Notes: generated from the letters alone by a model not told the origin. A stretch of DNA of 52,786 nucleotides from a virus (IMGVR_UViG_3300033148_006306:1-52786), one strand, 5' to 3'. Counted from the stretch's first letter, positions 1,526-52,379 are shown. A program made the numbers and translations.

Positions 1526-3496
1526 ATGTCTCACCTAATAAGCCACTATGACCCATCATTACTAAACATCCTAAAGTGGGAAAAGGACATATCCACAAAA
1601 GAGTGGTGTGAAAACAACGTGTATCTCCATACAGATGCTTCACCTACTCCTGGTATGGTTAGGTTTGATGATACTCCACATATTGAAGAGGTGTTGCGAG
1701 ATTTTGATAAAAACTATGTATGGAAACAGCTTTTAAACTGGTCTACACAAACAGGTAAAACTTTTACTATGCAGTGTGCTTGGGCTAAGAGTATGGACAC
1801 TGACCCAGCAAGAGTACAGTGGTCTATAAAAAACAAGAATGATGTTGGAGATTATCTTGAAGAAAAGATATATCCATTTCTTCGTGGAGTAGATTCTCTT
1901 CAGAAAAAGATTATAATTTTAAGTGAAGAAAAAAAGAAAAAACTCAAAGCAGCATCCATAAACATACCAGGTGGAGGTACAACTTTTACTGGTACAACAG
2001 ATGCAGAACTTAGGTCAAAGTCAGCAAAGTATGTTTTTGCAGATGAAATAGCCCTTTATGATAAGGGTAATTTTATAGAGCTTGAGGGTAGAACAAAAGC
2101 CTTTGAGAGACACTTTCGTAAGATAATGGCAGTTTCATCAAGAAAACATCTTAATGATGAAATGGATGTGAACTATAAGACATGTGAGACAGTAAAAGAA
2201 TGGAAAACATACTGTCAAGAGTGTGAAGAATTCTTTTATGCAGGAAGCAAACATCTAAAGTTTATGACTAAAACAGAGTTTATGCAGAAGTTTGACCAAA
2301 AAGAAGAAACATACAATGTTCAGCAGCATGTAAAAGAAGCACTAAAAGACATCTATATAGAATGTCCAAATGAAGAGTGTGAGCATCACATAAGTAATGT
2401 TGAAAAAGATAAAAATATATATGACAGAAAATATAAGTTTGAAATAGTCACCGGTGACGAAGATGGAAGAACGATAGGTTATAAAGCAAACGCTCTTGCA
2501 GTAAGGATAACATCGCTTGAAATCATAGTCTCACTTCTCATAAACGCTGAATATGAAGATGACCAAGATGTGCTCCATCAGTTATATATAGACTACTTTA
2601 ATGAGTTTTATGAAAAAGAATACCACACAGCAGATCAAAACGATATGCTACTACTTGGAAACGGAGTAAAAGAGTACATAGTACCAAAAGACACAGTAAA
2701 GATATATCTCACCATAGATAACCAGATGGACTACCTCTTCGCACAAATAACAGCAGTTGGATATGGAGTAGTGCCACATGTAATGTACTTTGGAAGAATA
2801 GAGACTTGGAGCGATGCTGAAGCACTGTGGGAAATATGTCAATACCTAGAAGACGAAGACGGTGAAAACTACATGGCATCAAAGATGGGTATAGACAGAC
2901 GTGGATATAATGAGGGTCAAATAAGCAGAACAGACGAGGCAGACGCTTTTGTAAACTATATGACTCAAAAATGGGGAGAAGATAGAGTTTATGGGATGGA
3001 AGGTCACGCTGGTTTAACCGGTGGAAAATCTTTTGCAGTAGTAAATCACAAAGACTACTCAAACCAAAGACACGAACTAAAGATAAAGATCATAAAATTC
3101 TCAAATCTATACATCAAAAACCAACTCTTCAGAAGCATAGAAAGAACCATAATAAAAGCAAAAGCTGAAAAAGAAGAAGATGACGGCTTTAACTACAACG
3201 GAAAACTCTTTTACATAAACCAAGACAACATAGACAGAGACATAAAAGGCACTACAAACCTCTCAATAACAAAAATGCTCACAGCAGAAGTCCTAGACTA
3301 CGCAAAGCACCCAAAAACAGGAAAACTAGCACCAGAAAAAAGCTGGATACCAATAAGAAAAAGAAATGATGCAATAGACACATCAACAATGGCACTAACA
3401 TTCGCAGAGATGGATAAAATAATCCTAATGAAAAAACCATCAGGTGAAAACCTAGAAGCAGCACTAAACCAACTAGGAGACTTAGACTTTTCTTGA
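1526..3496 (+). CDS. terL: Terminase large subunit, lambda gpA family
   Basis: 656 aa; TPHIEEVL, Walker A STQTGKT, Walker B VFADE, Cys zinc motifs, C-terminal RNDAIDT nuclease motif. Confidence 0.9.
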   Translation: MSHLISHYDPSLLNILKWEKDISTKEWCENNVYLHTDASPTPGMVRFDDTPHIEEVLRDFDKNYVWKQLLNWSTQTGKTFTMQCAWAKSMDTDPARVQWSIKNKNDVGDYLEEKIYPFLRGVDSLQKKIIILSEEKKKKLKAASINIPGGGTTFTGTTDAELRSKSAKYVFADEIALYDKGNFIELEGRTKAFERHFRKIMAVSSRKHLNDEMDVNYKTCETVKEWKTYCQECEEFFYAGSKHLKFMTKTEFMQKFDQKEETYNVQQHVKEALKDIYIECPNEECEHHISNVEKDKNIYDRKYKFEIVTGDEDGRTIGYKANALAVRITSLEIIVSLLINAEYEDDQDVLHQLYIDYFNEFYEKEYHTADQNDMLLLGNGVKEYIVPKDTVKIYLTIDNQMDYLFAQITAVGYGVVPHVMYFGRIETWSDAEALWEICQYLEDEDGENYMASKMGIDRRGYNEGQISRTDEADAFVNYMTQKWGEDRVYGMEGHAGLTGGKSFAVVNHKDYSNQRHELKIKIIKFSNLYIKNQLFRSIERTIIKAKAEKEEDDGFNYNGKLFYINQDNIDRDIKGTTNLSITKMLTAEVLDYAKHPKTGKLAPEKSWIPIRKRNDAIDTSTMALTFAEMDKIILMKKPSGENLEAALNQLGDLDFS

Positions 3497-3534
3497 TATA
3501 GGTCAATGACTTTCACAAAAAAAAGCTATACAAT
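3493..3534 (+). promoter_or_regulatory. Promoter with FNR-type box at -41.5
   Basis: TTGATATAGGTCAA (3493-3506), 22 bp spacer, TACAAT (3529-3534). Confidence 0.7.
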
Positions 3535-3552
3535 GCTACAAAAGGATGCAAA

Positions 3553-4092
3553 ATGAACAAACATAAATTTGAAAACCCAAAAGCAGACGTAATACTAAAA
3601 GATGAAGAGGCTGTGATATATCTAAACTACTTAAAAGACAAAGGCTATGATTCAATAGATGAATTGGTAAAAAAATATAAAAATGAAGTTCAAGAAACCA
3701 CAGATAGATTAAAATATTTACGCGTAAGTTATCGTATGGAGCAAGGAATCAACAATGACATCAAAGAGGTGTTATATGGATTAAGCAGCAGACTTTCTTT
3801 ATATAGGGTTTATGGCTACGAACTCCACATGCGAAGAGAGCGTTATGTACAAGTAGCTATCGCATATATTTCCAAGAATCAGGCAGATATAGAAAGAATA
3901 CATAAATTATTTGCCGATGTTATCAAAGATAAAGCAAACGAGTTAGCCTCAGAAGCAATAGAAGAAAGACAAAAGCTATGTGATGAAGATAACAGGCTAA
4001 CAAAGCTAGAATACAAACTAAAACTCTCTAAATGGGAAAAAACATTCTGGAGAAGAGTCTTTAAAAAATTGTTTATGAAAAAGAAAACTTAA
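3553..4092 (+). CDS. Hypothetical coiled-coil protein
   Basis: 179-aa ORF, AAGGA SD. Confidence 0.75.
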   Translation: MNKHKFENPKADVILKDEEAVIYLNYLKDKGYDSIDELVKKYKNEVQETTDRLKYLRVSYRMEQGINNDIKEVLYGLSSRLSLYRVYGYELHMRRERYVQVAIAYISKNQADIERIHKLFADVIKDKANELASEAIEERQKLCDEDNRLTKLEYKLKLSKWEKTFWRRVFKKLFMKKKT

Positions 4093-4130
4093 TATAAGTC
4101 AAGGACAAAGAAACCAAAATAGTATATAAT
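4089..4130 (+). promoter_or_regulatory. Promoter with FNR-type box at -41.5
   Basis: TTAATATAAGTCAA (4089-4102), 22 bp spacer, TATAAT (4125-4130). Confidence 0.7.
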
Positions 4131-4153
4131 TTGGGTAAAGATTAGGAGATATT

Positions 4154-4405
4154 ATGAAAAAGCAAGACATCGCAGATATTACAGATTTTTTAGATACTGA
4201 AATCTGTGATTATGATTTAGAATATGATTATGAGATAGTAGATGATGTGATGCTAGTAACATTTATAGGGCACTTTACAAGCAATAGTGAAATTGAAATG
4301 ACTTTTAGATGTGTTGGTGGAAATCCTGAGTTTTATGGACTATGCGATAGCTACATTCACGCTGATACTAGAAGCTTCTGGATTAACTTTATGGGGAGTT
4401 TATAG
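4154..4405 (+). CDS. Hypothetical acidic protein
   Basis: AGGAG SD, 83 aa. Confidence 0.7.
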   Translation: MKKQDIADITDFLDTEICDYDLEYDYEIVDDVMLVTFIGHFTSNSEIEMTFRCVGGNPEFYGLCDSYIHADTRSFWINFMGSL

Positions 4406-4406
4406 T

Positions 4407-4613
4407 ATGGTATATGTAGCAGTAGATTATGATGGCAGCGAGGTAATTGTTGGGTTGGAAACAAAATATAGTTATATGTTAGAAGATAAAAGAGTTTCGC
4501 TTCGTATGGGAGTGGTTGATGCAAAAGTAATAGCTAAAGGCTCAATAGAAAAACTAATAGGCAAAAAGATAACTTGGGAAGATGAGCCAGTAGAACTAAA
4601 GGAAGAGTTATGA
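4407..4613 (+). CDS. Hypothetical phage protein
   Basis: MVYVAVDYDG...IEKLIGKKITWEDEPVEL; start moved to ATG 4407 with GGAG SD. Confidence 0.7.
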   Translation: MVYVAVDYDGSEVIVGLETKYSYMLEDKRVSLRMGVVDAKVIAKGSIEKLIGKKITWEDEPVELKEEL

Positions 4614-4885
4614 GTGAAGTTGTTACAGAAGAAGATATATTAAGATTTGCTGACAACACAATAAGAATTACACGGGATATGCTAAGATGTGAAGACTTTA
4701 ATGGAGTAAGAGAGCGTTTAAGAACAGTAACGCTAGCAGGCTTTATATATGAAGACAGTTTAATAATGAGAGCTTCTTTATCTGAGCCTTTTATTGAGTT
4801 TTGTCAAGACACATTAGATTTTAGTATGGAAGAGATGTTAGAGCATGATAGCAGACTAATAGCACAAGCCAAATTGATCGCATAA
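4610..4885 (+). CDS. Hypothetical protein
   Basis: ATGA overlap with upstream gene. Confidence 0.7.
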   Translation: MSEVVTEEDILRFADNTIRITRDMLRCEDFNGVRERLRTVTLAGFIYEDSLIMRASLSEPFIEFCQDTLDFSMEEMLEHDSRLIAQAKLIA

Positions 4886-4905
4886 GAAATGAAGAGGAGT
4901 AGATA

Positions 4906-5274
4906 GTGTATAAAGAAAAGATAATAGCTTCATTAGATAAACTAGCAAATGGAGAACTAAAAGCTCTATGGGAGCGAATACAGTTTGATTTTGTACCAGA
5001 TATAGGAGAAAAAGCTATGCTAAGAGATGATATAAAAGATAAAGTTTCAGACATAATTACTTCAAACCTAACAGACCCCAGACTTGTAGTTCAAGAGCAA
5101 CACAACTGGGTAGAGTTAAATATGGATGCAGTAGATGTGACTGAGTTGAGTTGTTTTATTGAAGCAGAGTTTGACATAGACTTCATTAGTCCAGACGCAG
5201 TAAGCAAATGGAACACAGTAGCAGACATAGTAAACTACATAGAAGATCAATTAGAAGGAAAAGACAATGGATAG
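4906..5274 (+). CDS. Acyl-carrier-protein-like protein lacking the phosphopantetheine serine
   Basis: C-terminal ~80 aa align to AcpP; LNMDAVDVTEL corresponds to LGADSLDTVEL, followed by IEAEFDI and TVADIVNYI. Confidence 0.8.
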   Translation: MYKEKIIASLDKLANGELKALWERIQFDFVPDIGEKAMLRDDIKDKVSDIITSNLTDPRLVVQEQHNWVELNMDAVDVTELSCFIEAEFDIDFISPDAVSKWNTVADIVNYIEDQLEGKDNG

Positions 5275-5575
5275 TTTTATCAAAAAATTATTATATCCTA
5301 AGTATGTTATTATGAAAGGTATACAGATAGATAATAGGGCGATTATGTTTTTAGGGATAAATACTAAATTAACAAAAGAAAAACTTTATAACCATAATGT
5401 TTTGGAATTTTCTAATCATAGCAGTCAATATTATACATCAAATATTTACAAGAGAATTTATACATTTAAACAGCTTTTGAAGTGGTATAGATTATTAGGC
5501 AAAAAAGACTCTAAGTGCTTAGAATATAAATCATTTAAATGGCAACATATCAAAGAAAAAGGACTCCTAAAATGA
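5267..5575 (+). CDS. Hypothetical protein
   Basis: Overlapping ORF in operon. Confidence 0.6.
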   Translation: MDSFIKKLLYPKYVIMKGIQIDNRAIMFLGINTKLTKEKLYNHNVLEFSNHSSQYYTSNIYKRIYTFKQLLKWYRLLGKKDSKCLEYKSFKWQHIKEKGLLK

Positions 5576-5748: not shown

Positions 5749-5749
5749 G

Positions 5750-6148: not shown

Positions 6149-6166
6149 TAAATGGGGGAAGAGATA

Positions 6167-6670: not shown

Positions 6671-6672
6671 AG

Positions 6673-7132: not shown

Positions 7133-7342
7133 ATGCAGACAAGACTAGAAAGCTTCATAGAAGTGCTACATAACCAATGGTCAGGAATAGTTGTGGGATG
7201 GTGTATAGTTTTCTTTCTATTTCCATTGTTTGACCATTTGCAACAACACTGGGTAGCAACAATATCAACAATACTGTTTTTTATGTCCTCTTTTATGAGA
7301 ATGTGGATAATAAGAAGATACTTTAACGGGAGAGTGAAATGA
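7133..7342 (+). CDS. Small two-TM membrane protein (MQTRLESFIE...RRYFN type seen beside phage methyltransferases)
   Basis: Two hydrophobic segments and conserved-looking termini. Confidence 0.7.
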   Translation: MQTRLESFIEVLHNQWSGIVVGWCIVFFLFPLFDHLQQHWVATISTILFFMSSFMRMWIIRRYFNGRVK

Positions 7343-7863
7343 TAGAAAGTAAAAAAGTTTTATATTCAAAAGGCAATAGTGACGAGCAATACACACCTGC
7401 TTATGCAGTAGAGCCTATCTTAGAGTTTATTCCAAAAGATGCTATAGTTTGGTGTCCATTTGATAAAGCGGACAGTGAGTTTGTAAAACAGATACGCAAA
7501 AAAGGAAACACAGTAATAATAAGCCATATAGACGATGATAAATGCTTTTTTGAATACGAACCTGCCGAATGGGATATTTTAATCTCAAATCCACCTTTCA
7601 CAAACAAGCGTAAGTATTTTGAGAGAGCATTGAGTTTTAACAAACCTTTTGCTTTAGTAATGACAAATACTTGGCTAAACGACTCAGCACCAAAACAACT
7701 CTTCAAATACAAAGACTTACAACTACTGATGTTTGATAAAAGAATGAAATTTGTAAATCCTGATGGCAGAGCAAATAATAAAATAACTTTCAGCAGCAGC
7801 TACTACTGTTGGAACTTTTTACCAAAACAAATAATAATGAAAGAATTAGTGATAAAAACTTGA
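7339..7863 (+). CDS. Phage N6-adenine DNA methyltransferase
   Basis: DEQYTP, IVWCPFD and catalytic ISNPPF motifs. Confidence 0.85.
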   Translation: MIESKKVLYSKGNSDEQYTPAYAVEPILEFIPKDAIVWCPFDKADSEFVKQIRKKGNTVIISHIDDDKCFFEYEPAEWDILISNPPFTNKRKYFERALSFNKPFALVMTNTWLNDSAPKQLFKYKDLQLLMFDKRMKFVNPDGRANNKITFSSSYYCWNFLPKQIIMKELVIKT

Positions 7864-7901
7864 TATGAATCAAGGCAATAAAACCAAACCTATGTAATAA
7901 T
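7860..7901 (+). promoter_or_regulatory. Promoter with FNR-type box at -41.5
   Basis: TTGATATGAATCAA (7860-7873), 22 bp spacer, TGt-AATAAT (-10 at 7896-7901). Confidence 0.65.
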
Positions 7902-7918
7902 ACACAAAAGGATAAAAA

Positions 7919-8489: not shown

Positions 8490-8490
8490 A

Positions 8491-8843: not shown

Positions 8844-8876
8844 AGCAGAAGTGATATAATACAAAAAAGGAAAAAC

Positions 8877-10133: not shown

Positions 10134-10487
10134 ATGAAATCTAAACACGGGAACACAAAAACTTTTAGAATAATAAAGGGAGAGAAAGTTCCCTTTGATA
10201 GTTTCAAAGAAGCAAATCGTTTTGACCAACTATATCTACTAGCAAAAGCTAAAAAGATTTCACAGCTTACTATCCAACCAAAATACCTATTAATGGAAGC
10301 CCAAACACACAACGGTTTCACATACAAAAGCGTTTCATACATAGCAGACTTCAGATATATAAAAAACGGAAAAACAATCGTAGAAGATGTAAAATCAGAT
10401 CACACAAAGAAACTAGCCACATATAGAGTTAAGATAAAATGGTTTCTATCTCTCTATGGAAAAGATCTAACTTTTATAGAAACTTGA
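10134..10487 (+). CDS. DUF1064 family PD-(D/E)XK nuclease-like protein
   Basis: FDSFKEANRF, LTIQPKY, YIADFRY, VEDVKS. Confidence 0.88.
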   Translation: MKSKHGNTKTFRIIKGEKVPFDSFKEANRFDQLYLLAKAKKISQLTIQPKYLLMEAQTHNGFTYKSVSYIADFRYIKNGKTIVEDVKSDHTKKLATYRVKIKWFLSLYGKDLTFIET

Positions 10488-10524
10488 TATAGGTCAAGAA
10501 GATACTTTTGGAATATGTTATACT
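10484..10524 (+). promoter_or_regulatory. Promoter with FNR-type box driving the sORF / ncRNA / tRNA-like region
   Basis: TTGATATAGGTCAA (10484-10497), 21 bp spacer, TGt-TATACT (-10 at 10519-10524). Confidence 0.7.
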
Positions 10525-11014: not shown

Positions 11015-11139
11015 GCACCATTAGCTCAGTTGGTTAGAGCAGATTGTAGGTCTGAAAAACCTCAAATACACAAGATGATACTAATTTCATCGTATTAGAA
11101 AACAGTCACAGGTCACTGGTTCGAGTCCAGTATGGTGAG
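11015..11139 (+). tRNA. Non-canonical tRNA-like RNA with a branched insert in the anticodon arm (contains a CU-GAA-AA Phe-type loop)
   Basis: Acceptor CACCAT/ATGGTG, D-arm GCTC-AGTTGGTTA-GAGC, T-arm ACTGG-TTCGAGT-CCAGT; 1-72 mismatch; no encoded CCA. Confidence 0.75.
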
Positions 11140-11211: not shown

Positions 11212-11248
11212 TTGACTTATGTTAATATCCTACATTTTATGATATAAT
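11212..11248 (+). promoter_or_regulatory. Head operon promoter with box over the -35
   Basis: TTGACTTATGTTAA (11212-11225), 17 bp spacer, TGa-TATAAT (-10 at 11243-11248). Confidence 0.65.
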
Positions 11249-11281: not shown

Positions 11282-11497
11282 ATGGCACAAGCAACCATAG
11301 ATTCAGAAATCGCTGACCTAACAACCAGAATCTCACTACTTGATGACGAAATAAAAGAACAGCAACATCTTTCAGAACTAGAAGAGGGCGGTGGCAACGC
11401 TAGATTCCGTACACAGTTCGCAGACATCGGAAAACTGTATGACAGACGAGATACTTTAAATACAAGGCTACAAGCATTACTAAGGAGTCAGATTTGA
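11282..11497 (+). CDS. Head-tail joining protein, gpW-like
   Basis: 71-aa helix-hairpin-helix pattern directly upstream of portal. Confidence 0.65.
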   Translation: MAQATIDSEIADLTTRISLLDDEIKEQQHLSELEEGGGNARFRTQFADIGKLYDRRDTLNTRLQALLRSQI

Positions 11498-15450: not shown

Positions 15451-15487
15451 TTGACCTATATCAATAATTACAGAATTAAGGTATAAT
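15451..15487 (+). promoter_or_regulatory. Capsid operon promoter with box over the -35
   Basis: TTGACCTATATCAA (15451-15464), 17 bp spacer, TATAAT (15482-15487). Confidence 0.7.
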
Positions 15488-15519: not shown

Positions 15520-16635
15520 ATGAATAACTTAGTAATAAATTCAGACATTTCACAATGGGGGTTTAGTTCAAGATGGCTGTCAGGTAAACTATCTGAAATG
15601 ACAGGAGACCTTGAAGTAGATATATCATCATATGGTGGAGATGTCTTTGAAGGTATTGACATGTACAATCAACTAAGAAGATACTCAAAAGACAAAGGAC
15701 ATGTGACAACTATCGCAGGTTCAAAAGTAATGAGTATCGCTTCACTCTTACTATTAGCAGGAGACACCAGAAAAGCCCACAGTAATTCAACAATAATGAT
15801 TCATAAAGCTTGGACTTGGTTGGCAGGAAATTCAGATGAATTAATTGCAGAGTCTAAAGTTCTAGGTGGAATAGATATTATCTTAGCAAAACAATATGGA
15901 AAATATATGGATAACTCCCATGAAGAGATAATGGAAGTTATGTCAAATGAGGGATGGTATATTGGACAAGAGCAAATAGAAGAAACAAATTTTATAGATG
16001 CTTTTATAGTTGAGTCTGATGAGGTGGAAGTATCCGCAAAATCAAACTATAAAAAAGCAATGGCTAGATTTAGTGCAAAAGCCCAAGAAGATGATGTTAA
16101 GCCAAACTTTGATGAGGTAAAAGCATCAATAATTGAATGTAATGACGGAAAATGTCCCACTGCCTCGCAAGGCGGTAAAATAGCGAATAAAATTCAAGGA
16201 GCAGACATGGATATTGTGTTTGACAAAGAAAATCTTGACAAAACGGAAGCACTCTTTAATGCGTTAGTGAAAAATAAAACTAAAGCAGAAAAAGATACAG
16301 CGGAAATACAGTTAAGTTTAAATACAGCGACAACTGCTTTGGAAGCTAAAACTGAAGAAATGACGAAGTTAGTAGCTAGTCATAAAACAGAGCTTTCTGA
16401 GGCAGAAGGAAAATTAGATAGTTTTAAAACAGAGACTATCGCAAGAGTGCAGGAAGGAATCTCATACAAAGCAACAGCAGATGTAATTGTTAATGCGATT
16501 AAAGCTGATGATTCTGAAAAAGCAACAAGTTTAATCATGGCTCATGTTGAGTCCGATGGTGCAACAAGACAAACCACAAGTGAACCGGTAAAAGGTACAT
16601 GGGATGGACATTCTTTTAAGAGAGGTAAAAAATAA
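15520..16635 (+). CDS. ClpP-like head maturation protease with scaffold tail
   Basis: ISSYGGDVFEG, SIASLLLLAG, IMIHKAW. Confidence 0.9.
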   Translation: MNNLVINSDISQWGFSSRWLSGKLSEMTGDLEVDISSYGGDVFEGIDMYNQLRRYSKDKGHVTTIAGSKVMSIASLLLLAGDTRKAHSNSTIMIHKAWTWLAGNSDELIAESKVLGGIDIILAKQYGKYMDNSHEEIMEVMSNEGWYIGQEQIEETNFIDAFIVESDEVEVSAKSNYKKAMARFSAKAQEDDVKPNFDEVKASIIECNDGKCPTASQGGKIANKIQGADMDIVFDKENLDKTEALFNALVKNKTKAEKDTAEIQLSLNTATTALEAKTEEMTKLVASHKTELSEAEGKLDSFKTETIARVQEGISYKATADVIVNAIKADDSEKATSLIMAHVESDGATRQTTSEPVKGTWDGHSFKRGKK

Positions 16636-22614: not shown

Positions 22615-23277
22615 CTATATAGTAAAGTTTTTTGTATGCTCTAATTTATGGCAGATGATATAACTATCATAAGCAGTTGCTCCATCTATAGGTAAATCAA
22701 AATATCCAAGATGTATTCTTCTGTAATTAACAGTAATAGATGCAACCCATTTTTGAGCGGATTTATTATACCAAACACCTCTATATCCACTTGTGTTATT
22801 TTTTCTTATTCTCCTAGTATTTCTTGCTTGAACAATTCTAGTAGTCCACTTGCAGTTGTGGGGAGTATAATCTTTATCATTATTTTTTCTTTCGAGAGTT
22901 AAACTGTCTTTATAGCCATTGGCAAGTGCCCAAGTTTGAAAAATGGCAAAATCTATTCTCCATTCATCGCAGATATGAATATTTCTTTTGCCATAGTCAA
23001 CAAAACTCTTATTGTTAGGATTGTAGCATCTAGCTTTCATGGTGTTCCATACATCATATAGTTTTGATTTTCTGCCACCATGTCTAGTCATGGCACAACT
23101 CTTGCAAGATTTTATTTTTCCTCTTTTAATACTATTAGCCATGGTTTTAAATTCAGCGTTGCACACTTGACATAATACCAACCAATATCTTGATTTAGTT
23201 TTACTAGAAGCATTTGCATAAGAGTAACCTAAATCCTTTAAAAAAATAGGTGTAGTTTTTTTGATTGTTTTATCCAT
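22615..23277 (-). CDS. HNH/AP2-domain homing endonuclease
   Basis: WNTMKARC, LERKNNDKDYTPHNCKW, NTSGYRGV...IHLGYF AP2 domain. Confidence 0.9.
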   Translation of the reverse strand: MDKTIKKTTPIFLKDLGYSYANASSKTKSRYWLVLCQVCNAEFKTMANSIKRGKIKSCKSCAMTRHGGRKSKLYDVWNTMKARCYNPNNKSFVDYGKRNIHICDEWRIDFAIFQTWALANGYKDSLTLERKNNDKDYTPHNCKWTTRIVQARNTRRIRKNNTSGYRGVWYNKSAQKWVASITVNYRRIHLGYFDLPIDGATAYDSYIICHKLEHTKNFTI

Positions 23278-23349: not shown

Positions 23350-23414
23350 ATTATAGCATAAGACATACAAAAAGTCTTGACTTATATCAATATTCATAAG
23401 AATTTAGATATAAT
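23350..23414. promoter_or_regulatory. Divergent promoters (HNH and tape measure) sharing one FNR-type box
   Basis: Box TTGACTTATATCAA 23377-23390; minus TATAAT 23350-23355 (21 bp away), plus TATAAT 23409-23414 (18 bp away). Confidence 0.65.
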
Positions 23415-23443: not shown

Positions 23444-26320
23444 ATGGCAAACATTATAAATACTTTTACCCTCAAGCTTCAAGACCAAGACTTCAAAAGC
23501 AACCTAGAGAATCTTCAAAAAACTCAACAGCAGTACCAACAGCAAATAGCAAAAGGTCTGGTAGACAGTGCAAACAAAACCCAAAACCTAAGAAAAATAG
23601 AAGAGAAAGCACTAAAAGCTAAATCAAAACTGCTAACAGAAGGTCTATCAAAATCAGATAAACGAATAAAAGCAATAGACAAAACGATAGCTTCTACTAA
23701 GCTACTAGTTCAAGCAGAGAAGAAAAGCACAACCGGTCTAAAAGAAGCTGAGATAGCACTAGATAAAGTTTATGGTCAGCAAATAAAATCAACTAAAGCA
23801 ACAGAACAACAAACTCTTGCAAGTAAAAAACTTTTAACAGTAAATCAACATCTTGCAAAAGCACAATTTCAGCAAAAAAAAGCAACACCAACTTCAAGGG
23901 GAGTTTGGGACACAAAAGATATGAGGTCTTATTATACTGAACTTGAAAAATCAACTAAAGCAACAGATAAAAACTCAAAAGCAAAAAAGATAAACGCTGA
24001 ATCAACCTCTAGTCTGGCAAATCAAACAATCCGTTATCTAAGATGGGCTGGTACAATCGTAGGGGTACTATACGCAGTAAACAGAGTTTGGAGAGTAACA
24101 CTAGGTACTGGTATAGAAGTAAACAAGATGATGGAAGACAACACTTCCGGTATCGGTGCTTTACTCTCAGCAAACACACAAATGGTACTCTCAAACGGTG
24201 AAATGGTAGATAGCTATGAAAAGTTCAAGTTAGGTCAACAAGTAGCAACAAAAACAATGGATGAACTAAGAAAAGCATCTATAAGAACATATGCAACTTT
24301 TCCACAACTAACTGAAATCTTCCAACAGGCAATAGGTCAAACTCTTTCGATGGGGAAGGCGTTTGGTAGTACAGTAAAAGAAATTAATTCAAATACTATT
24401 GAATTATCTCAAAGAATGTCGAACATAGCAGGTGCTATCGGTATGCCGATGGACAGAGTGCGTGAGGAAATTAGAAGTTTACTTAGTGCCAATGCTTCGA
24501 CTGATTCATTAATAGCAACAATGCTCTTTGGTTCACCTACCGAAGCGAATAAAGCAATTCGTATGGCTAAAGACAGAGGAGAAGGTGGACTTACACGATT
24601 GCTAAACTCTGTACTCGCACCTTTTGACGCACTGGAAAATGTAGATAGCTATACTCGTTCACTATTACAACTAGAAGATGCTTGGTCACAACTATGGCAA
24701 ACTGCTTCTCAACCACTTTTTGAGACATTAAAAGATACTTTCAAAGATTTGGCAGTAGATATAAATGATGCTAAAAATGCTCTGCAAGAATGGAGAATAG
24801 AAATTAACAGCATAGCAGATGTATCAAAAAAGTCTGGTTTAGCGGTAATTCAAGACCAAATAAGACAAACAGCTAAAACCATAGCAGAATTAGAGCAAGA
24901 CAAAGGCTCTATGTTTGGTCTTTTCGATAAAGCTAAAGAGATTGACATAAAAAGACTAAAAACTGCGTTAGTTGAACTCAAAAAAGTTTATAAAGAACTT
25001 AGCGAAGAGAGCGTAAAAGCACCATCTTTAGCAACAGAACTAACCGTAGATAAAAAGTTTTTAGATGAAACAGCATCTTTGATGCAAAAAAACAAGACTA
25101 AAACTCTTCAAATAGAAGAACAAATCACAAAAGCTCAAAAACAACAGGAAATACTCCAAAAAAGAATTGCAATAAGAGATGGAGCACACACAAAAAATGC
25201 AGAACTAAGAAGATTAGCCGATGTAAAAAATGTAGCAGATAAAAAACTAATAGTAGCCCTAGAAGGAAGAATACAACAGCATGTAAAAGAAATAGCAGAG
25301 ATACGAGAAAAAGCTAATGATAAAGAATCTAAAGCACTCGATAGAAGATTTAACGAAATACGAAAAAATCAAAATGCTCAACACAAAGTATTTACAGATC
25401 GTGATAAGTCCATAGACGACCAATATAAAAAAGTAGAAGATTACCAAAATCAAGGTTTTGACAACTGGAAAAGAATTCAAAAAGAAAAAGAACAAGAAGC
25501 CCAAAAAGCATTTCAAGCACAACAAAACTTCAGAAGACTCCAAGCGGAACTCATAAGAGATGAGAAAGCAAGAGCAATAGAGTTAGCTAAAATAAATCTT
25601 GATTCAAGAAGAGCAGAACTTCTAGTACTCAAAGAAAAAGAGGGATGGACAGACGAATACTATACAAATGTTTTAGCAGCAGAAGAAGAACTCTCAAGAC
25701 GAATAATGCAAGGCTACACAGAATACGGTCAACTGATGGCAACCGTAGGCAACTCAATGGAGTCAAGCTTCTCAGATTTCTTCGACTTCACAAGTGACGG
25801 TTTTATGGATATGGAAGATATGGCACTAGATGTCCTTGATTCAATATACAAAGCACTTCTGAAAAACTACATAATTGGAGAAGCTACAACAGCAACAACC
25901 GGAGGCTCAGGAATAGTAGGAGCGATAACTAGTTTTGACTATTCAAGCCTATTCGCAAAAGGTGATGCTTTTAGCAATAGCCCATCACTCTCAGCACATT
26001 CAAATACGGTAGTATCTCAGCCAACACCATTCTTTTTTGCTACCGGAGGCGTACCAAATCTAGGAATAATGGGTGAAGCTGGAAGAGAAGCAATAATGCC
26101 ACTAACAAGAACATCAGATGGCGACCTTGGAGTAAAAGCAGTATCACAAGCACCTAAAAAAATAACAGTAAATATAGTTAATGAAAGCGGTCAAGAAGTC
26201 CAAGCCACACAAGCAGAATCAAGTTTTGATATGGAAGGTACAGTAATAAGCATCGTAATAGATGCAGTTCAAACGAATAGAATGGGTGCAAGAGATGTAC
26301 TAATGGGAGGTAATAGCTAA
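23444..26320 (+). CDS. Tail tape measure protein
   Basis: 958 aa helical; lambda-like C-terminus FATGG...GIMGEAGREAIMPL. Confidence 0.9.
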   Translation: MANIINTFTLKLQDQDFKSNLENLQKTQQQYQQQIAKGLVDSANKTQNLRKIEEKALKAKSKLLTEGLSKSDKRIKAIDKTIASTKLLVQAEKKSTTGLKEAEIALDKVYGQQIKSTKATEQQTLASKKLLTVNQHLAKAQFQQKKATPTSRGVWDTKDMRSYYTELEKSTKATDKNSKAKKINAESTSSLANQTIRYLRWAGTIVGVLYAVNRVWRVTLGTGIEVNKMMEDNTSGIGALLSANTQMVLSNGEMVDSYEKFKLGQQVATKTMDELRKASIRTYATFPQLTEIFQQAIGQTLSMGKAFGSTVKEINSNTIELSQRMSNIAGAIGMPMDRVREEIRSLLSANASTDSLIATMLFGSPTEANKAIRMAKDRGEGGLTRLLNSVLAPFDALENVDSYTRSLLQLEDAWSQLWQTASQPLFETLKDTFKDLAVDINDAKNALQEWRIEINSIADVSKKSGLAVIQDQIRQTAKTIAELEQDKGSMFGLFDKAKEIDIKRLKTALVELKKVYKELSEESVKAPSLATELTVDKKFLDETASLMQKNKTKTLQIEEQITKAQKQQEILQKRIAIRDGAHTKNAELRRLADVKNVADKKLIVALEGRIQQHVKEIAEIREKANDKESKALDRRFNEIRKNQNAQHKVFTDRDKSIDDQYKKVEDYQNQGFDNWKRIQKEKEQEAQKAFQAQQNFRRLQAELIRDEKARAIELAKINLDSRRAELLVLKEKEGWTDEYYTNVLAAEEELSRRIMQGYTEYGQLMATVGNSMESSFSDFFDFTSDGFMDMEDMALDVLDSIYKALLKNYIIGEATTATTGGSGIVGAITSFDYSSLFAKGDAFSNSPSLSAHSNTVVSQPTPFFFATGGVPNLGIMGEAGREAIMPLTRTSDGDLGVKAVSQAPKKITVNIVNESGQEVQATQAESSFDMEGTVISIVIDAVQTNRMGARDVLMGGNS

Positions 26321-37734: not shown

Positions 37735-37776
37735 ATTATAATACAACTAAAACCAAATAGCCTTGACATGTATCAA
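37735..37776 (-). promoter_or_regulatory. Promoter with FNR-type box at -41.5
   Basis: Box 37763-37776, 22 bp spacer, TATAAT 37735-37740. Confidence 0.7.
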
Positions 37777-39762: not shown

Positions 39763-39804
39763 ATAGTAACACAATAAATACTAAAAGTAATTGACTTATA
39801 TCAA
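39763..39804 (-). promoter_or_regulatory. Promoter with FNR-type box at -41.5
   Basis: Box 39791-39804, 22 bp spacer, TGt-TACTAT (-10 at 39763-39768). Confidence 0.65.
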
Positions 39805-40133: not shown

Positions 40134-40175
40134 AGTATACAACAATCTCAAACCAATTACCTTGACACAAATCAA
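40134..40175 (-). promoter_or_regulatory. Promoter with FNR-type box at -41.5
   Basis: Box 40162-40175, 22 bp spacer, TATACT 40134-40139. Confidence 0.65.
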
Positions 40176-40362: not shown

Positions 40363-40947
40363 CTACCCTTTAAATTTCCAAATAAACTTACCAGCGGTCT
40401 TTAGTTGACCTCGACAACAGCCACTAATGTTTTCTTTATAGACACCAGAACACTTACCAGCCTCATAAATAGAATGAAAAGTTGCTATAAGTCTGCCATC
40501 TAAAGAATACTGAGAGACAGGTCTGCAAAGCTCATCTCTGTTTTTATGTGGAGAGTTGTGACCCTTAACCATATTTTCTCTCCATACCATAACTTGAATA
40601 TTATTAAAAGAATATCCTTCATCATCCTTAAGCCTATCAACAGAAGGGGCTAATTCTCTTTCAAAGTTACTATCAATCCAAGCAGAGTGAATGATAATAA
40701 ATTTTGGTTTAGATAAACACCATACTCTAAGTTTATTAAGAGAATAAGCAGGCATCAGATGTCCTCTATACCTACTATTTCTTCTTTGAGCACTATAAAT
40801 TTTCCTAACAACACCCATAAGAGTCCGAGAATCATCAGTAACACATTGCTTACACCAATGTTGCAAACCATCCTTCTTGCTCCCATTAAGAGAGAACAGC
40901 TTTATAGAAACATAACCCTTACAATAAGAACAGTATTTAGTTTTCAT
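40363..40947 (-). CDS. Homing-endonuclease-like protein (HNH-like core plus NUMOD1)
   Basis: N-terminal CxxC..CxxC, PSVDRL..GYSFNNIQ, VSQYSLDGRLIATFHSIYEA...TAGKFIW. Confidence 0.85.
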   Translation of the reverse strand: MKTKYCSYCKGYVSIKLFSLNGSKKDGLQHWCKQCVTDDSRTLMGVVRKIYSAQRRNSRYRGHLMPAYSLNKLRVWCLSKPKFIIIHSAWIDSNFERELAPSVDRLKDDEGYSFNNIQVMVWRENMVKGHNSPHKNRDELCRPVSQYSLDGRLIATFHSIYEAGKCSGVYKENISGCCRGQLKTAGKFIWKFKG

Positions 40948-41071
40948 TAGTAGCACACTTCTTAATTAATAGTCCTATGGCATCAGAAAGAGTCTTGCAA
41001 TCATTTTCTAACTTAATCCTCTGCAACTCTTTATAAACATCTCTCTCTATCTTCATTGTAACTTTGTCCAA
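40937..41071 (-). CDS. Ribbon-helix-helix protein (44 aa, not in ORF track)
   Basis: TTG start, AAGGA SD; MDKVTMKIERDVYKELQRIK...TLSDAIGLLI. Confidence 0.65.
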   Translation of the reverse strand: MDKVTMKIERDVYKELQRIKLENDCKTLSDAIGLLIKKCATNEN

Positions 41072-45032: not shown

Positions 45033-45036
45033 AACC

Positions 45037-45816: not shown

Positions 45817-45823
45817 ACTCTCC

Positions 45824-46504: not shown

Positions 46505-46562
46505 TTTAAATGGTATCTTTATAAATTTAAGTAAAAATATTAGAGGAAATATAAGAAGATGT

Positions 46563-46660
46563 GCCTACCAAAACTCATCTAATCTATTTCAAGATTTACT
46601 TAACCGAACTTACAAGTAAGTCCAGCGAGTTCTGGTAGGCTCGGTTAAGTAATCAGCAAC
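46563..46660 (-). ncRNA. C4-like antisense / leader RNA switch upstream of the antirepressor
   Basis: 12-bp closing stem 46596-46607 with 46641-46652; 46627-46640 is complementary to 46563-46576. Confidence 0.6.
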
Positions 46661-46690
46661 AGTATATCAAAATAAAAGAACAAATGTCAA
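46661..46690 (-). promoter_or_regulatory. Sigma70 promoter of the antirepressor operon
   Basis: TTGACA (46685-46690), 18 bp spacer, TGa-TATACT (-10 at 46661-46666). Confidence 0.75.
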
Positions 46691-46807
46691 ATCAACCCCA
46701 AAAGTCAAAAAATAACTTTTGAAGCAATATGAAAAACAAAGTCATGCAGCACAAAGAACACAACCAACAAAACAAACGCAAAACCAATAGCTTTTAAGTA
46801 ACCCATA

Positions 46808-48222: not shown

Positions 48223-48366
48223 GACTTACTCCTTTCAAAAGTAAAAATAGTATAAATAAGCTTCGCCATACAACCTAAAAATATCGCACAAGCAACACCA
48301 ACACAAATAATCCAACCGATACTCATAAAAACTCCTAAAATTTTCGTGCTACTATCTACTACCAAA

Positions 48367-48408
48367 ATTATAACCTAAACCACAACCCTTTCCCTTGACT
48401 TATATCAA
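48367..48408 (-). promoter_or_regulatory. Promoter with FNR-type box at -41.5
   Basis: Box 48395-48408, 22 bp spacer, TATAAT 48367-48372. Confidence 0.7.
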
Positions 48409-48428
48409 GTTCAGAAAAATTGGTGGCA

Positions 48429-48707
48429 CTAACTACTACTCTCAATCTCTTCAGCAAGTAGAGCAACAGCCTCTTCTTTTAAACTAGCATACATCAATGC
48501 AGCACTATCTCTTTTTTTATAACCTCTAATAGTGTTAATACTAACACCTCTTAACCTCGCAATATCAAGATCACTAATAACAACACTACAATAGTTAAGA
48601 AGAGCAAGTCTACCACCCTTCTCAAGTGCAACAATAGTTTTCCAACTCTTCGTATGATAAGCAATAGCAACACCAGAATATAGCTCTGTAAATTCTTTTC
48701 TAGTCAT
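48429..48707 (-). CDS. Putative HTH DNA-binding protein
   Basis: DLDIARLRGVSINTIRGYKK. Confidence 0.6.
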   Translation of the reverse strand: MTRKEFTELYSGVAIAYHTKSWKTIVALEKGGRLALLNYCSVVISDLDIARLRGVSINTIRGYKKRDSAALMYASLKEEAVALLAEEIESSS

Positions 48708-49209
48708 TTTTAAGCTCCTCAGTGTTTTTTAAATTTATACGCCCAAAATAAGCCTCATACTCTTTACTCTCTTTTATCTCAGATATATACTCATCAATAG
48801 GCTTTAAAGTATCCCTGACATCATAAATGTATTGACCTAAAATATATTCTTTTTCCCCTTCTTTTTCACAAGCTGAAAACCAAGTCACAAGAAAATCATA
48901 TATATCATCTTCCTCTTTTATCTTTAAACCATCTCTAACCTGCTGAAATCTAGTCTTAAAATCCTCATCAATTAAAAAACCATAAGGTTGTAGTTCATCT
49001 TCGCTCATAAACTCATAATACTCAGCTATATTATCTTTAGTGATAGCTGAATTCTCAAATGTATCTATCGCATAAGTAACACGATTACAAACGCTAACTT
49101 CTCCAATATGAGTTTCTAACCATTTAAGAGCAATTTTTTTCCCATCAATAAAACTGCCAACTTCTCCTAAATCTTCTTTTTTATCTGTAATAATTCCGTA
49201 TGTTTTCAT
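48700..49209 (-). CDS. Hypothetical acidic protein
   Basis: ATG 49209 with AGAAGGA SD. Confidence 0.7.
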   Translation of the reverse strand: MKTYGIITDKKEDLGEVGSFIDGKKIALKWLETHIGEVSVCNRVTYAIDTFENSAITKDNIAEYYEFMSEDELQPYGFLIDEDFKTRFQQVRDGLKIKEEDDIYDFLVTWFSACEKEGEKEYILGQYIYDVRDTLKPIDEYISEIKESKEYEAYFGRINLKNTEELKND

Positions 49210-49317
49210 AACAAATCCTTCTCTAAAGTGCATAATTTTAACTCTCTCAAGCTTAACACTTACAAGAGCCTACAAAGTAAGCTCAAATAAATCTTAAAAA
49301 ATTGGTGGCACTATCTA

Positions 49318-49530
49318 CTAATCATATTCCCATAAAGTAACTAAGTTCGCTTGAATAGCATAAGAGCATCCAACAACCCATAACAACATACCATCTTCAT
49401 CAATAGCCTCTACTTCATGCACCCATCCATTTTCTTCCATATCCTCGTATAAATCGGCATCATCTCTTTCATCACCTACATACTCAATTTTATCGCCAAT
49501 AACTATTTTTTTCCCATTTCCATCTAACAT
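49318..49530 (-). CDS. Hypothetical protein (YopX-C-like LDGNGKKIVIGD)
   Basis: AGAAGGA SD. Confidence 0.65.
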   Translation of the reverse strand: MLDGNGKKIVIGDKIEYVGDERDDADLYEDMEENGWVHEVEAIDEDGMLLWVVGCSYAIQANLVTLWEYD

Positions 49531-49716
49531 AACAAATCCTTCTTAAAAAATTGGTGGAGTACCTTACTACACCCTTTTAGCTAACCTAATAGCCTCTACT
49601 ATACTAAACGTAACCTTACCAGTATCAGCAAACAACCGCAACTTAAGAAAGTTATACTCTTTAAGCTGCTTTTTGTTTAGCTTACTTTTCTCTTTGATCC
49701 ATCCCATGAGAATTCC

Positions 49717-49902
49717 TTAATTTTGAAGATAAAAATCTTTTGCTTCATCGTTATAAAAAGTTATATAGTTTTTCGCTTTTTTACCAGCAGCAGAATCCCC
49801 TAAAGTGCCACTATAAGAAAAGTCTTTATTAAAAACAAATCCAGCTTTTTTAAGTTTATCACTAACCTCTTTGTGATTACCTCTAAAATTCATAACTTCC
49901 AT
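49717..49902 (-). CDS. Hypothetical protein
   Basis: GAGGTG SD before ATG 49902. Confidence 0.55.
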   Translation of the reverse strand: MEVMNFRGNHKEVSDKLKKAGFVFNKDFSYSGTLGDSAAGKKAKNYITFYNDEAKDFYLQN

Positions 49903-50096
49903 CTCACACCTCTTTAACACAAAATTTAGCTCAAATAATAAGCTATACAGTACAGCCCAATAGCTGCATTAATAACCTAAAAACAATTTAACTCAAAAAG
50001 TCAAAAAATAACTTTTTGGTAAAAAACTCAAAAAACAACTTTTTAAGAAAAAATTGGTGGATAGCCCTACTCTCTAAAAAGAGGTGGCTACTACTA

Positions 50097-50318
50097 CTAT
50101 GCTACATTCCATCCTATACCATAAGATACAAACTTCTTATTAGTAAGAACTAAACCAAGATCACAAACAATCTCTTTGGCTTTTTTAATAGTTTTTACTG
50201 AATAATAATTATCTTTTTTACCACCTAAAATTTGAGTAAATAAAGCTTTATTCCTATATAAAACTCTCACAAATTCGCCTAAACTGTTTTTATATACTTG
50301 ATTTACATTTTTTTTCAT
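50097..50318 (-). CDS. Hypothetical early protein
   Basis: ATGA overlap, AAGGA SD. Confidence 0.6.
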   Translation of the reverse strand: MKKNVNQVYKNSLGEFVRVLYRNKALFTQILGGKKDNYYSVKTIKKAKEIVCDLGLVLTNKKFVSYGIGWNVA

Positions 50319-50509
50319 TTTGATCCATCCTTAACACTCTGATACTCTTTTTTTAAAGATAAAATAAAATCATCTAATAAAACCATATTATTATTAATAT
50401 CACTCTTTAAAGCAACTTTACACATAAATTCTAAAGCTGTATAATAAGAAATAACACCATGTTTATAATTTCCTAAAATAACTCTTAATCTTTTTTCAAG
50501 TTTTAACAT
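50315..50509 (-). CDS. Hypothetical early protein
   Basis: AGGAG SD. Confidence 0.6.
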   Translation of the reverse strand: MLKLEKRLRVILGNYKHGVISYYTALEFMCKVALKSDINNNMVLLDDFILSLKKEYQSVKDGSK

Positions 50510-51093
50510 TTTACACTCCTAAAAAATTGGTGGCACTATCTACTATCAAAAAAATGGTGGGACACTCTACTCTCTAAAATTTCTTTTTTTAACAACAGCA
50601 TTGTACCCACTACTTTTAGCAAATCTTCGTCTTTCTATTGCTTCCTCTTTTGTATTAAAAAACTCATTTTCTTTTAATCCATCCCAATATATAAACCTTA
50701 CTAAATACTTCTTTAACATGATAATTCCTAAAATATAGTTTCATCCAATTTAATTGTAAATGCAATATCAAAAAACAGATACAAAAAAACACCACTTAAC
50801 AAACCAGTAACACACTTTAATATAATAATCTCCATTATAAAGTCTTGTTTATATCTCTAGTTATTAAGTTTTTAGCACTTCTTATGCTTTTACACTCTCT
50901 AATGTTATAATTAGCAAATTGCACTTCTATAACTTCTTTACCAGTTACATTTTTAATATGAATAAAACCGTTTTTATATCCTATTGTTTCAAACATGATA
51001 CACTCCATAAAATAAAATCTATATACACTCTAAACAAGTGCATAACAAATCTTACATAATAGAATAGTAATAATTTACTACTCTATAAATAGA

Positions 51094-51417
51094 TTATATC
51101 TCTATAAATCTAGGATTATATCTATCTATCATAATAGATATTGACTTTTTATATTCACAGTTAGTATCTTCTTTACACCATAAAAACAATTCTTTAATGT
51201 CACTATTCCCACCTATTTGTGAGGTATAACACTCTTTAAAATACTTCTTAATAGTGCTTTTTTTCAGCATCTCAGAACTTGAAATAAGAGAGTATTTGTT
51301 TAATGCTACATTTTGCCACTTGTTAACAATATCACCCCTAAAAATCAGATATATATAATCAGCATCTTCTTTAAGTTGTAATCCCTTAACAATATTAACA
51401 ACAGTTTCTTTTTTCAT
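51094..51417 (-). CDS. Hypothetical early protein
   Basis: AAGGG SD. Confidence 0.65.
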   Translation of the reverse strand: MKKETVVNIVKGLQLKEDADYIYLIFRGDIVNKWQNVALNKYSLISSSEMLKKSTIKKYFKECYTSQIGGNSDIKELFLWCKEDTNCEYKKSISIMIDRYNPRFIEI

Positions 51418-51504
51418 AATACACCCTTTTAATATAATCTAATAACTAATATATAGCTATACAGTACCAACTATAAAAAGTTAGTACAATATAGATATAA
51501 AACA

Positions 51505-51963
51505 CTATTCAATGTCATTATTGCTTAGTTCTTCTATGATACTGTATAATTCATCATCTGCAAACTTTAATCTATTATAAGTGTCTTTACATCCCTTATA
51601 CGCATTAAGACCATTTTTAAAGTTTTTAAGTTCTTTATCGGTTAGATATTCTTCAGCATATGAACTGTTTTTAAGTAAAAAATTATAATCACTTTTTAAA
51701 TAACCAAATTCAGAAAAAAAACTAGCTTTGTCATCTTTATAATCTAAATAAGATAAAGCATCTGAAATAACACATCTAAAAGCTAAAAGTAAATCTAAAT
51801 CACTCAAATCATATTTTTTAGCTTCAAAGTCAGCAATAGAGCCATAATATTTAAAAGTAGTGTGATTTACTCTTATATGATAGTGATATCTCTTTGCACC
51901 CCAATGAGTAACACCACCCAATTTAGAGTAACTTAATTTATATTTTAAAATTAATTCTTGCAT
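51505..51963 (-). CDS. Hypothetical early protein
   Basis: 152 aa, TAATG coupling. Confidence 0.7.
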   Translation of the reverse strand: MQELILKYKLSYSKLGGVTHWGAKRYHYHIRVNHTTFKYYGSIADFEAKKYDLSDLDLLLAFRCVISDALSYLDYKDDKASFFSEFGYLKSDYNFLLKNSSYAEEYLTDKELKNFKNGLNAYKGCKDTYNRLKFADDELYSIIEELSNNDIE

Positions 51964-52277
51964 TATAAATCCTTTTTTCTGTTTACATCATATACAATAG
52001 AATCAAATTTACACTTGATAATATCTTCACATACTGTATATAAACAAGCATATTTATTACTTTTAATTTTAGTGTTTAGTTGTTTGCTAAATACTTCTTT
52101 AATTAAATAGTTTAAAGCCGTGCTTTGAAATTGTGAATCATAACCATAGTTAAACGGTACTTTATAAACAAAATTACCATTAATATATATCTCTACACTA
52201 TGATAAGTATTTCCATATGTACTTTGAAACCATCTACGACCAATAACTTTAATTTCTTTTATATCTCTAGTAACCAT
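51963..52277 (-). CDS. Hypothetical early protein (GRRWFQSTYGNTYHS)
   Basis: GAGGT SD. Confidence 0.7.
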   Translation of the reverse strand: MVTRDIKEIKVIGRRWFQSTYGNTYHSVEIYINGNFVYKVPFNYGYDSQFQSTALNYLIKEVFSKQLNTKIKSNKYACLYTVCEDIIKCKFDSIVYDVNRKKDL

Positions 52278-52337
52278 AATAACACCTCTTAAAATCTAAA
52301 ATATAAGTGAATAAACACTTAATAAAACCATATATAA

Positions 52338-52379
52338 ATAATAGCTTTATTAAATGTATATAGCCTTGATATAAATCAA
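52338..52379 (-). promoter_or_regulatory. Promoter with perfect FNR consensus box at -41.5
   Basis: TTGAT-ATAA-ATCAA (52366-52379), 22 bp spacer, TATTAT (52338-52343). Confidence 0.55.

Follow-up and report, generated by a model that had tools for sequence, protein, structure and literature searches.

FNR-type boxes at fixed distances from -10 elements in a putative Campylobacterota phage

The window analysed here, a stretch of 52,786 nt, is one whole virus entry of the IMG/VR database (IMGVR_UViG_3300033148_006306) with a G+C content of 34% and strong ribosome-binding sites, and it carries repeated copies of a 14-bp palindrome resembling the binding site of FNR, each at a set distance from a -10-like hexamer. 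The original prediction had read these boxes as a genome-wide regulon with class II geometry, centred at -41.5 and controlled by a host CRP/FNR-family sensor of O2, NO (nitric oxide) or redox, in a phage that has no recognisable CRP/FNR gene; a phage helix-turn-helix (HTH) protein of convergent specificity was named as the alternative.

Rightward genes run from 432 to 36529 in the order terminase, small unknown genes and structural genes, beginning at the left end with a Nu1-like (432-1181) and a gpA-like terminase gene (1526-3496, TerL). The leftward arm, from 52555 to 36536, encodes an Ant/KilAC protein, DUF5131, a methyltransferase, an endonuclease VII/HNH protein and a single-stranded DNA-binding protein (SSB) and is presumed to be the early region. 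An identical 12 nt (GGTCACCAACAC) stands at both ends of the record (1-12 and 52775-52786); because of these termini and the Nu1-like and gpA-like genes at the left end, the record is probably a complete phage genome with cohesive ends, although CheckV estimates 62%. Megablast of 20 kb against GenBank phages gave no match, so that the phage, described here as siphovirus-like, has no close GenBank relative, and no integrase or CI-like gene was seen among its genes.

The box and its two promoter geometries

Ten exact matches to TTGAY-N4-RTCAA (TTGAYNNNNRTCAA) were found in the phage, against a mean of 0.36 and a maximum of 3 in 100 dinucleotide-preserving shuffles, none of which attained ten sites; two near-copies, at 4089 (TTAAT) and 11212, carry one mismatch. 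Every box lies between open reading frames (ORFs) or overlaps the stop codon of the ORF just upstream, and at 3493, 4089, 7860, 10484 and 39791 that stop codon falls within the box. A -10-like hexamer follows 22 nt downstream of the boxes at 3493, 4089 and 7860 (plus strand) and 37763, 39791, 40162, 48395 and 52366 (minus strand), and 21 nt downstream at 10484 (plus strand) and 23377 (minus strand). The nine exact sites that the original prediction had listed, its one-mismatch site at 4089, its eight 22-nt and two 21-nt spacings and its embedded stop codons were all reproduced, and the boxes held against shuffled sequence. It had overlooked the exact box at 15451, the one-mismatch box at 11212 and a second geometry, here called class B.

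We refer to the 21-22 nt arrangement as class A. Across its ten oriented sites the consensus is aatCTTGATATAaGTCAAGG, ~19 nt, TAtAAT, with the extended box CTTGAT-ATAR-GTCAAGG in consistent orientation, and the alignment contains no TTGACA-like hexamer 16-18 nt from the -10; a pattern search for canonical promoters returned just the one at 52589-52617, which has no box. The ten promoters drive the minus-strand arm and the block of small genes between TerL and the structural genes. In the lists that follow, the promoters and the genes assigned to them are predictions, and each box is followed by its distance to the -10 hexamer.

3493 to 3534, plus strand: class A promoter; box TTGATATAGGTCAA, 22 nt, TACAAT; TerL stop codon (TGA) in the box; drives ORF 3553-4092
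4089 to 4130, plus strand: class A promoter; box TTAATATAAGTCAA (one mismatch), 22 nt, TATAAT; upstream stop codon in the box
7860 to 7901, plus strand: class A promoter; box TTGATATGAATCAA, 22 nt, AATAAT; stop codon of methyltransferase ORF 7339-7863 in the box
10484 to 10524, plus strand: class A promoter; box TTGATATAGGTCAA, 21 nt, TATACT; stop codon of resolvase-like ORF 10134-10487 in the box
23350 to 23414, minus strand: class A side of the shared box 23377-23390; 21 nt, TATAAT; drives AP2-domain ORF 22615-23277
37735 to 37776, minus strand: class A promoter; box TTGATACATGTCAA, 22 nt, TATAAT; directly after the SSB gene
39763 to 39804, minus strand: class A promoter; box TTGATATAAGTCAA, 22 nt, TACTAT; upstream stop codon in the box
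40134 to 40175, minus strand: class A promoter; box TTGATTTGTGTCAA, 22 nt, TATACT
48367 to 48408, minus strand: class A promoter; box TTGATATAAGTCAA, 22 nt, TATAAT; 21 nt past the stop codon of HTH ORF 48429-48707
52338 to 52379, minus strand: class A promoter; box TTGATTTATATCAA, 22 nt, TATTAT; first box promoter of the presumed early minus-strand arm

Three boxes, all ahead of structural operons, stand in the second arrangement, in which a reversed box lies 17-18 nt from a perfect TATAAT. These boxes read TTGAC...ATCAA at 15451 and 23377 and end in GTTAA at 11212, and compared with them the class A -10 elements are weaker and more varied.

11212 to 11248, plus strand: class B promoter; degenerate reversed box TTGACTTATGTTAA, 17 nt, TATAAT (TGnTATAAT); ahead of 11282-11497 and a 520-aa structural-region gene
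15451 to 15487, plus strand: class B promoter; reversed box TTGACCTATATCAA, 17 nt, TATAAT; ahead of head-region ORF 15520-16635
23350 to 23414, plus strand: class B side of the shared box 23377-23390; 18 nt, TATAAT; drives the 958-aa gene 23444-26320

Although box sites account for a large part of the recognisable promoters, box-free promoters occur too, with extended -10 elements near 8860, 21565 and 35105 and canonical elements at two sites of the minus strand. Only some of the promoters, then, carry the box, which is a regulatory module rather than an element common to all, and the description of the regulon as genome-wide was overstated.

52589 to 52617, minus strand: canonical promoter without box; TTGACT-17-TATAAT; drives a 57-aa ORF (52382-52555) that ends 2 nt before the box at 52366; presumed to be an activator-independent immediate-early promoter
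46661 to 46690, minus strand: canonical promoter without box; TTGACA-18-TATACT; long leader with a hairpin (46505-46807) ahead of the Ant/KilAC gene

About 30 nt of the leader region 46505-46807 (minus strand) recur at 49995-50048. The AP2-domain ORF served by the shared box (22615-23277; C-terminal domain, E 1e-7) is a lone minus-strand gene with its own class A promoter inside a late operon and resembles an insertion of the homing-endonuclease type.

A viral scan for the composite box/-10 pattern returned 63 stretches, and one for a 15-mer box gave nearly all single chance matches among the matches listed. The architecture itself recurs in nine further phage contigs (G002, L008, L162, G156, G157, G158, G159, G161 and G163). 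In G002, the closest viral relative (TerL 56% identical), three sites are class A and two are class B, and one of these sites directly follows TerL; a box in this position, found in the window too, also occurs in L008 (TerL 42%), and L162 (TerL 44%) has one class A box. None were found in the relatives G001, G003 and G004. Whole-contig counts gave 3-5 class A sites each in G156, G157, G158, G159 (complete), G161 and G163, and several boxes in G156, G158 and G161 are flanked by a -10 on both sides, 22 nt away on one and 16-19 nt away on the opposite one, an arrangement comparable to that of the shared box at 23377. G163 (L238-L240) uses a variant box (TTGATCYAGATCAA), for example at 5154, 6495, 14999, 41092 and 43318, of which the first four lie 21 nt and the last 22 nt from TATAAT. 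Some of these contigs share scattered genes with the window and G163 has no detectable protein in common with it, so that a shared host factor fits G163 better than a shared phage factor. A palindrome in G001 (L147-L149; TTACATGTAA) was considered as a promoter motif and rejected, its six copies standing in sequence that looks coding; it may be a site connected with methylation or restriction.

These comparisons bear on whether chance or the composition of an AT-rich genome could have produced the pattern as an artefact. TAnnnT hexamers are common in such DNA, at a background rate of 0.035 per position; even so, the spacing of 22 nt occurs eight times over the 24 oriented flanks of the 12 sites, where ~0.8 hits are expected per spacing. 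The shuffles, together with syntenic conservation in relatives such as the position directly after TerL in G002 and L008, already refute an artefact, to which we assign virtually no probability.

Probable host and its box promoters

Homologues of the phage TerL include a Campylobacterota protein from a metagenome-assembled genome (MAG). In a genome scan a relative 44% identical was found on a Campylobacterota MAG contig and one of 25% identity in a Nitratifractor MAG; TerL of Nitratiruptor phages is 23% identical. The closest TerL relatives (P0003, P0005 and P0006), 56-57% identical, are encoded on contigs of 35-44 kb. The TerL query alone found no relative in IMG/VR, but an alignment of its homologues did. 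The phage SSB (37779-38282, minus strand) was matched in 399 of 401 Campylobacterota genomes, the closest proteins, in ~20 of the 401, being 72-79% identical over their full length as against ~50-60% for most of the phylum, which suggests that it was captured from, or exchanged with, the host clade. From the TerL relatives and the SSB similarity we infer a Campylobacterota host near the clade with the closest SSBs.

In this phylum both the box with its spacing and Crp/Fnr genes, which the original prediction had proposed to seek in the host, were found. Across 151 Campylobacterota genomes the composite of box, N21-22 and TANNNT gave 698 matches as against 86 for a reversed control, and an HTH_Crp_2 gene was present in 116 of the genomes (35 without match). 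The five genomes with the closest SSBs hold 9-14 box matches (55 in all versus 3 in the control) and 3-6 HTH_Crp_2 genes each, and in four of the five a Crp gene lies ~1 kb upstream of a box. A cleaner test than the reversed control is the distance from box to TATAAT, which in five genomes was 21-22 nt in 7 of the 17 cases within 10-40 nt, with ~1.1 expected; one of the seven falls on a phage-like contig. The genes behind six host boxes encode a rubrerythrin-domain protein, a NifS-like protein, a hemerythrin, YgbA_NO and a TAT-signal molybdopterin oxidoreductase, a family being assigned to five of the seven proteins in this survey and none to the other two ORFs.

The 16-bp form CTTGAY-N4-RTCAAG in the same geometry gave 48 matches in 35 of the 151 genomes and none in the control. 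Many of the 48 resemble conserved coding sequence, and at least five lie within 2.5 kb of a Crp/Fnr gene among the matches listed (150 of 261 Crp/Fnr hits). The host-phylum genome G136 carries a box (CTTGACATAGGTCAAGG) that matches the phage box at 3493 and 10484 in all but 1 nt and stands 22 nt before TATACA. It directly follows the stop codon of a gene with cNMP and HTH_Crp_2 domains, and behind it come nrfH, nrfA and genes for cytochrome c assembly; a second Crp/Fnr gene is found downstream, and another in this genome is flanked by two boxes. Both box-adjacent host Crp proteins carry the recognition helix TPETLSR, whose E--SR pattern we take to be the FNR contact set for TTGAT. In another genome (G005, contig C100) three boxes were set aside as unrelated to the phage and without class II geometry.

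Boxes or regulators of this kind have been described in two members of the phylum. A study of Nitrosophilus labii (PMC11539149) gives TTGA-N6-TCAA as the Crp/Fnr consensus that was searched, with exact boxes for napA, norE and nosB that begin 49, 48 and 48 nt, respectively, ahead of the predicted transcription starts. In the phage, 14+22+6+~6-7 nt predict 48-49 nt from box to start, a distance equal to that in Nitrosophilus labii. Wolinella succinogenes NssA, NssB and NssC induce the nitrate, nitrite and N2O reductases upon nitrate, NO and N2O, according to a review (PMC6682613).

Candidate readers of the box

No Crp/Fnr protein or sigma factor encoded by the phage itself was detected. HTH_Crp_2, cNMP_binding, Sigma70_r2 and Sigma70_r4 had no match at E<=10 in the six frames of the phage, controls for these searches being positive in 11-14 of 14 reference genomes, and the claim that the phage has no recognisable CRP/FNR gene was borne out by the first two. 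Pfam and PHROGs scans of 61 of the ~100 ORFs returned no sigma, Crp or classical regulator family. A search for the T7-type RNA polymerase family found no match, but its control also gave no match anywhere.

The explanation that we favour, with chances somewhat better than even, is that a host Nss-type Crp/Fnr dimer activates the box promoters from about -41.5. The phage boxes would be activator sites copying host class II Crp/Fnr promoters: a dimer of the host's Crp/Fnr family would bind CTTGAT-N4-GTCAAG with its centre ~41.5 bp ahead of the transcription start, take the role of the absent -35 element and bring host RNA polymerase to the -10. Candidate regulators in Campylobacterota would be the Nss/NssR proteins, for which nitrate, NO or N2O is the signal. 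The spacing of 21-22 nt in all ten class A sites predicts a box centre near -41.5 relative to the predicted starts. As about a dozen phage promoters are built like the nitrate/NO-responsive Crp/Fnr promoters of the host phylum, phage gene expression is probably tied to the respiratory state of the host, the likely signal being nitrate, NO or N2O (Nss type) rather than O2 as such. Apart from its genome-wide reach, the FNR-type class II reading is partly supported, by its box, its spacing, its lack of a -35 and of a phage Crp/Fnr gene and its match to the host phylum, with the likely signal shifted from O2 towards nitrogen oxides.

Ahead of the three late operons with class B promoters the box lies 5 bp closer to TATAAT and would be centred near -36.5, where the same protein would more probably occlude the promoter than switch it on and, judging from this placement, might hold it off. 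A single host N-oxide Crp/Fnr sensor could then act as a two-way early/late switch, activating early and middle promoters from -41.5 and holding the strong late promoters off from reversed boxes near -36.5 or from the far side of shared boxes, the late genes firing when the dimer is titrated by replicating phage DNA or when the nitrate/NO/N2O signal ends. We regard this fuller scheme as unlikely; if true, the timing of lysis would depend on the respiratory state of the host. The two geometries side by side also lend themselves to a testable model in which the phage would time its genes through a regulator taken from its host.

Class B also raises the proposal that some other host factor reads the box, or that the box is mainly a repression or timing operator and not a class II activator site. 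At 11212, 15451 and 23377 (plus strand) it superimposes the box on the -35 region of strong TATAAT promoters, and class A boxes in other phages have a further -10 on their far side, at a distance of 16-19 nt. In Campylobacterota, promoters are reported to function without a -35 element, and class A promoters might then fire unaided. Against this proposal stand the strict 21-22 nt and fixed orientation of all ten class A sites, a constraint that activation from one face of the helix would impose, and the weaker, more varied -10 elements of class A. Host boxes at the same spacing, moreover, precede genes known to be induced via Nss regulators. We hold the proposal to be quite improbable.

A different possibility, which we consider doubtful though still a serious one, is that the boxes are bound by a dimer of a small HTH protein encoded by the phage, acting at class A promoters as an activator from -41.5 and perhaps at class B promoters as a repressor; the resemblance to the FNR box would then be convergent or deliberate mimicry. 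One candidate was found, and the alternative named in the original prediction has thereby gained a concrete protein family as its candidate.

48429 to 48707, minus strand: candidate HTH protein, 92 aa; helix-turn-helix DIARLRGVSINTIRGY; relatives at L162 1843-2082 (79 aa) and G159 885-1055 (56 aa)

The protein has a clear HTH, and its AlphaFold model, all-helical at low confidence (pLDDT, the predicted local distance difference test, 59), shows the expected order of three helices and, behind them, a long C-terminal helix. Its neighbours in a protein atlas are HTH families, several from Campylobacterota, all with scores below 0.9 and to be taken as leads only. The L162 protein matches it with 38% identity over 37 aa (BLASTP E 2e-4; hhalign probability 89.7%), and a hidden Markov model of the family also recovers the 56-aa ORF of G159. 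The genes adjoin boxes in all three phages: the window gene ends 21 nt before the box at 48395, the L162 box lies inside the 3' end of its gene and the G159 gene starts ~130 nt from a box at 743. A canonical TTGACA-17-TAT(A/C)AT promoter at the head of the early region precedes the gene in both L162 and G159, as would fit an immediate-early activator.

One argument against this protein is its recognition helix, which would be expected to be conserved where the operator is conserved. In an alignment of the three proteins nearly all exposed positions of this helix differ (INTIRGY, PKTISTH and KPTMANW), whereas the half-sites TTGAT/TTGAC are the same in the three phages. The first box promoter of the window (52366) stands ~4 kb upstream of the gene, whose product therefore cannot start that promoter. 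No family member was found in G163 and four other box-using fragments, contigs that are incomplete (28-58% by CheckV). The 92-aa protein has no Pfam family at threshold, two homologues among 5.8 billion proteins and none in IMG/VR, and a sequence search of the PDB with it returned nothing meaningful. The host phylum, in addition, already holds a protein family with matching specificity and geometry.

Several observations nevertheless weigh against activation by a host Nss-type protein. Three box-using contigs (G000, L162 and G159) reach into the beginning of the early region, and each of them has a member of the HTH family; none was detected above E 0.05 in the box-free relatives G001, G003 and G004. 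Box centres and flanks are phage-specific, with ATAR in the window, GTAA in G156 and G161 and CYAG in G163, as would fit a phage-specific reader; a Crp/Fnr protein that reads mainly TTGA/TCAA does not require them. About 40 ORFs lie outside the family scans and many of the 61 scanned are orphans, and the host, itself inferred, is placed only to phylum or clade. In the host genomes (~2 Mb), box matches average 5.2 with and 2.6 without an HTH_Crp_2 gene (Mann-Whitney p 1e-4), a weak comparison because the reversed control, itself imperfect, scales likewise (0.66 and 0.26 per genome). Since genomes without HTH_Crp_2 keep 2.6 matches and the controls scale alike, part of the genomic excess is compositional. 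Dependence on a conditional host activator for early genes is, finally, risky for a lytic phage.

Counterparts in known systems and further features of the window

Class II sites of FNR in Escherichia coli consist of the dyad TTGAT-N4-ATCAA at -41.5 without a -35 element, and the phage promoters resemble them in consensus, dyad symmetry, position (predicted here) and missing -35; they differ in the host phylum and in the likely Nss-type sensors in place of the O2-labile [4Fe-4S] FNR. The shared box at 23377 and several boxes in G156, G158 and G161 recall bacteriophage lambda, in which CI bound at OR2 activates PRM from about -42 and represses PR: one dyad stands at class II distance on one side and over a divergent -35 on the other. 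The lambda reader, unlike a borrowed host protein, is encoded by the phage and governs lysogeny.

The closest counterparts are the Nss/NssR promoters of Wolinella succinogenes (NssA, NssB and NssC) and Nitrosophilus labii (nap, nor and nos), those of the latter sharing the TTGA-N6-TCAA box and the 48-49 nt to the start, and the Campylobacterota promoters with the box at 21-22 nt from the -10, ahead of nrfHA, a NapA-like gene, hemerythrin and YgbA and beside Crp/Fnr genes. In contrast to these, the phage boxes reach a density of ~190 per Mb, roughly 40 to 75 times the 2.6-5.2 matches per ~2-Mb genome, are extended and consistently oriented, and drive phage genes without assigned function in place of respiration genes.

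The borrowing of a host CRP-family regulator by a phage is already known from T4-like cyanophages, in which, according to passages of PMC3037559, 1-16 NtcA sites per genome (average 8.9) lie ahead of diverse phage genes and have been proposed to let the phage exploit the host stress response. As far as those passages go, multiple intergenic sites for a (putative) host CRP-family regulator and the lack of a phage copy of that regulator are common to both systems; the cyanophage sites are GTA-N8-TAC and follow nitrogen status in cyanobacteria, as against two geometries in a siphovirus-like phage here. Our literature search found no paper describing such promoters in this phage group and phylum, and neither 'promoter' nor 'Crp' occurs in a survey of Sulfurimonas phages (PMC11531552). 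At vents, oxic-anoxic interfaces and in aquifers, a large part of the turnover of nitrate, nitrite and N2O is due to Campylobacterota such as Sulfurimonas and its relatives. Should the phages of these bacteria respond to the N-oxide sensors of the host, infection and lysis would track denitrification and link viral mortality to nitrogen and N2O fluxes. Several contigs that hold more than one such promoter were recovered with the signature CTTGAY-N4-RTCAAG + 20-21 nt + TATAAT, which might also be of use in assigning hosts to uncultured phages.

Among the genes near box promoters, ORF 3553-4092 was considered as a T4 late-transcription coactivator and dismissed, its Pfam match (E 0.02, 15 bits) being taken as chance, and homology between the 57-aa first early ORF and a 66-aa ORF of L162 was unsupported (E 0.25). 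An ORF of 79 aa upstream of the small terminase gene (206-445, plus strand) is 77% identical in G001, as against 43% for the small terminase subunit and 46% for TerL. Weaker domain matches include an acyl-carrier-protein-like ORF at 4906-5274 (plus strand; PP-binding, E 0.0014) and a 44-aa ribbon-helix-helix/VapB-like ORF at 40937-41071 (minus strand; E 0.0011) that overlaps the start of the endonuclease VII gene. A tRNA match at 11015-11139 (plus strand; Rfam, 34.6 bits) spans 125 nt with an insert of ~50 nt, and ARAGORN makes no call there. At 48338-50579 on the minus strand a ~27-nt repeat (...TAGTAGnTAGTGCCACCAATTTTT) occurs in 6-8 copies, each without a hairpin and placed between the stop codon of a small early gene and the ribosome-binding site of the next.

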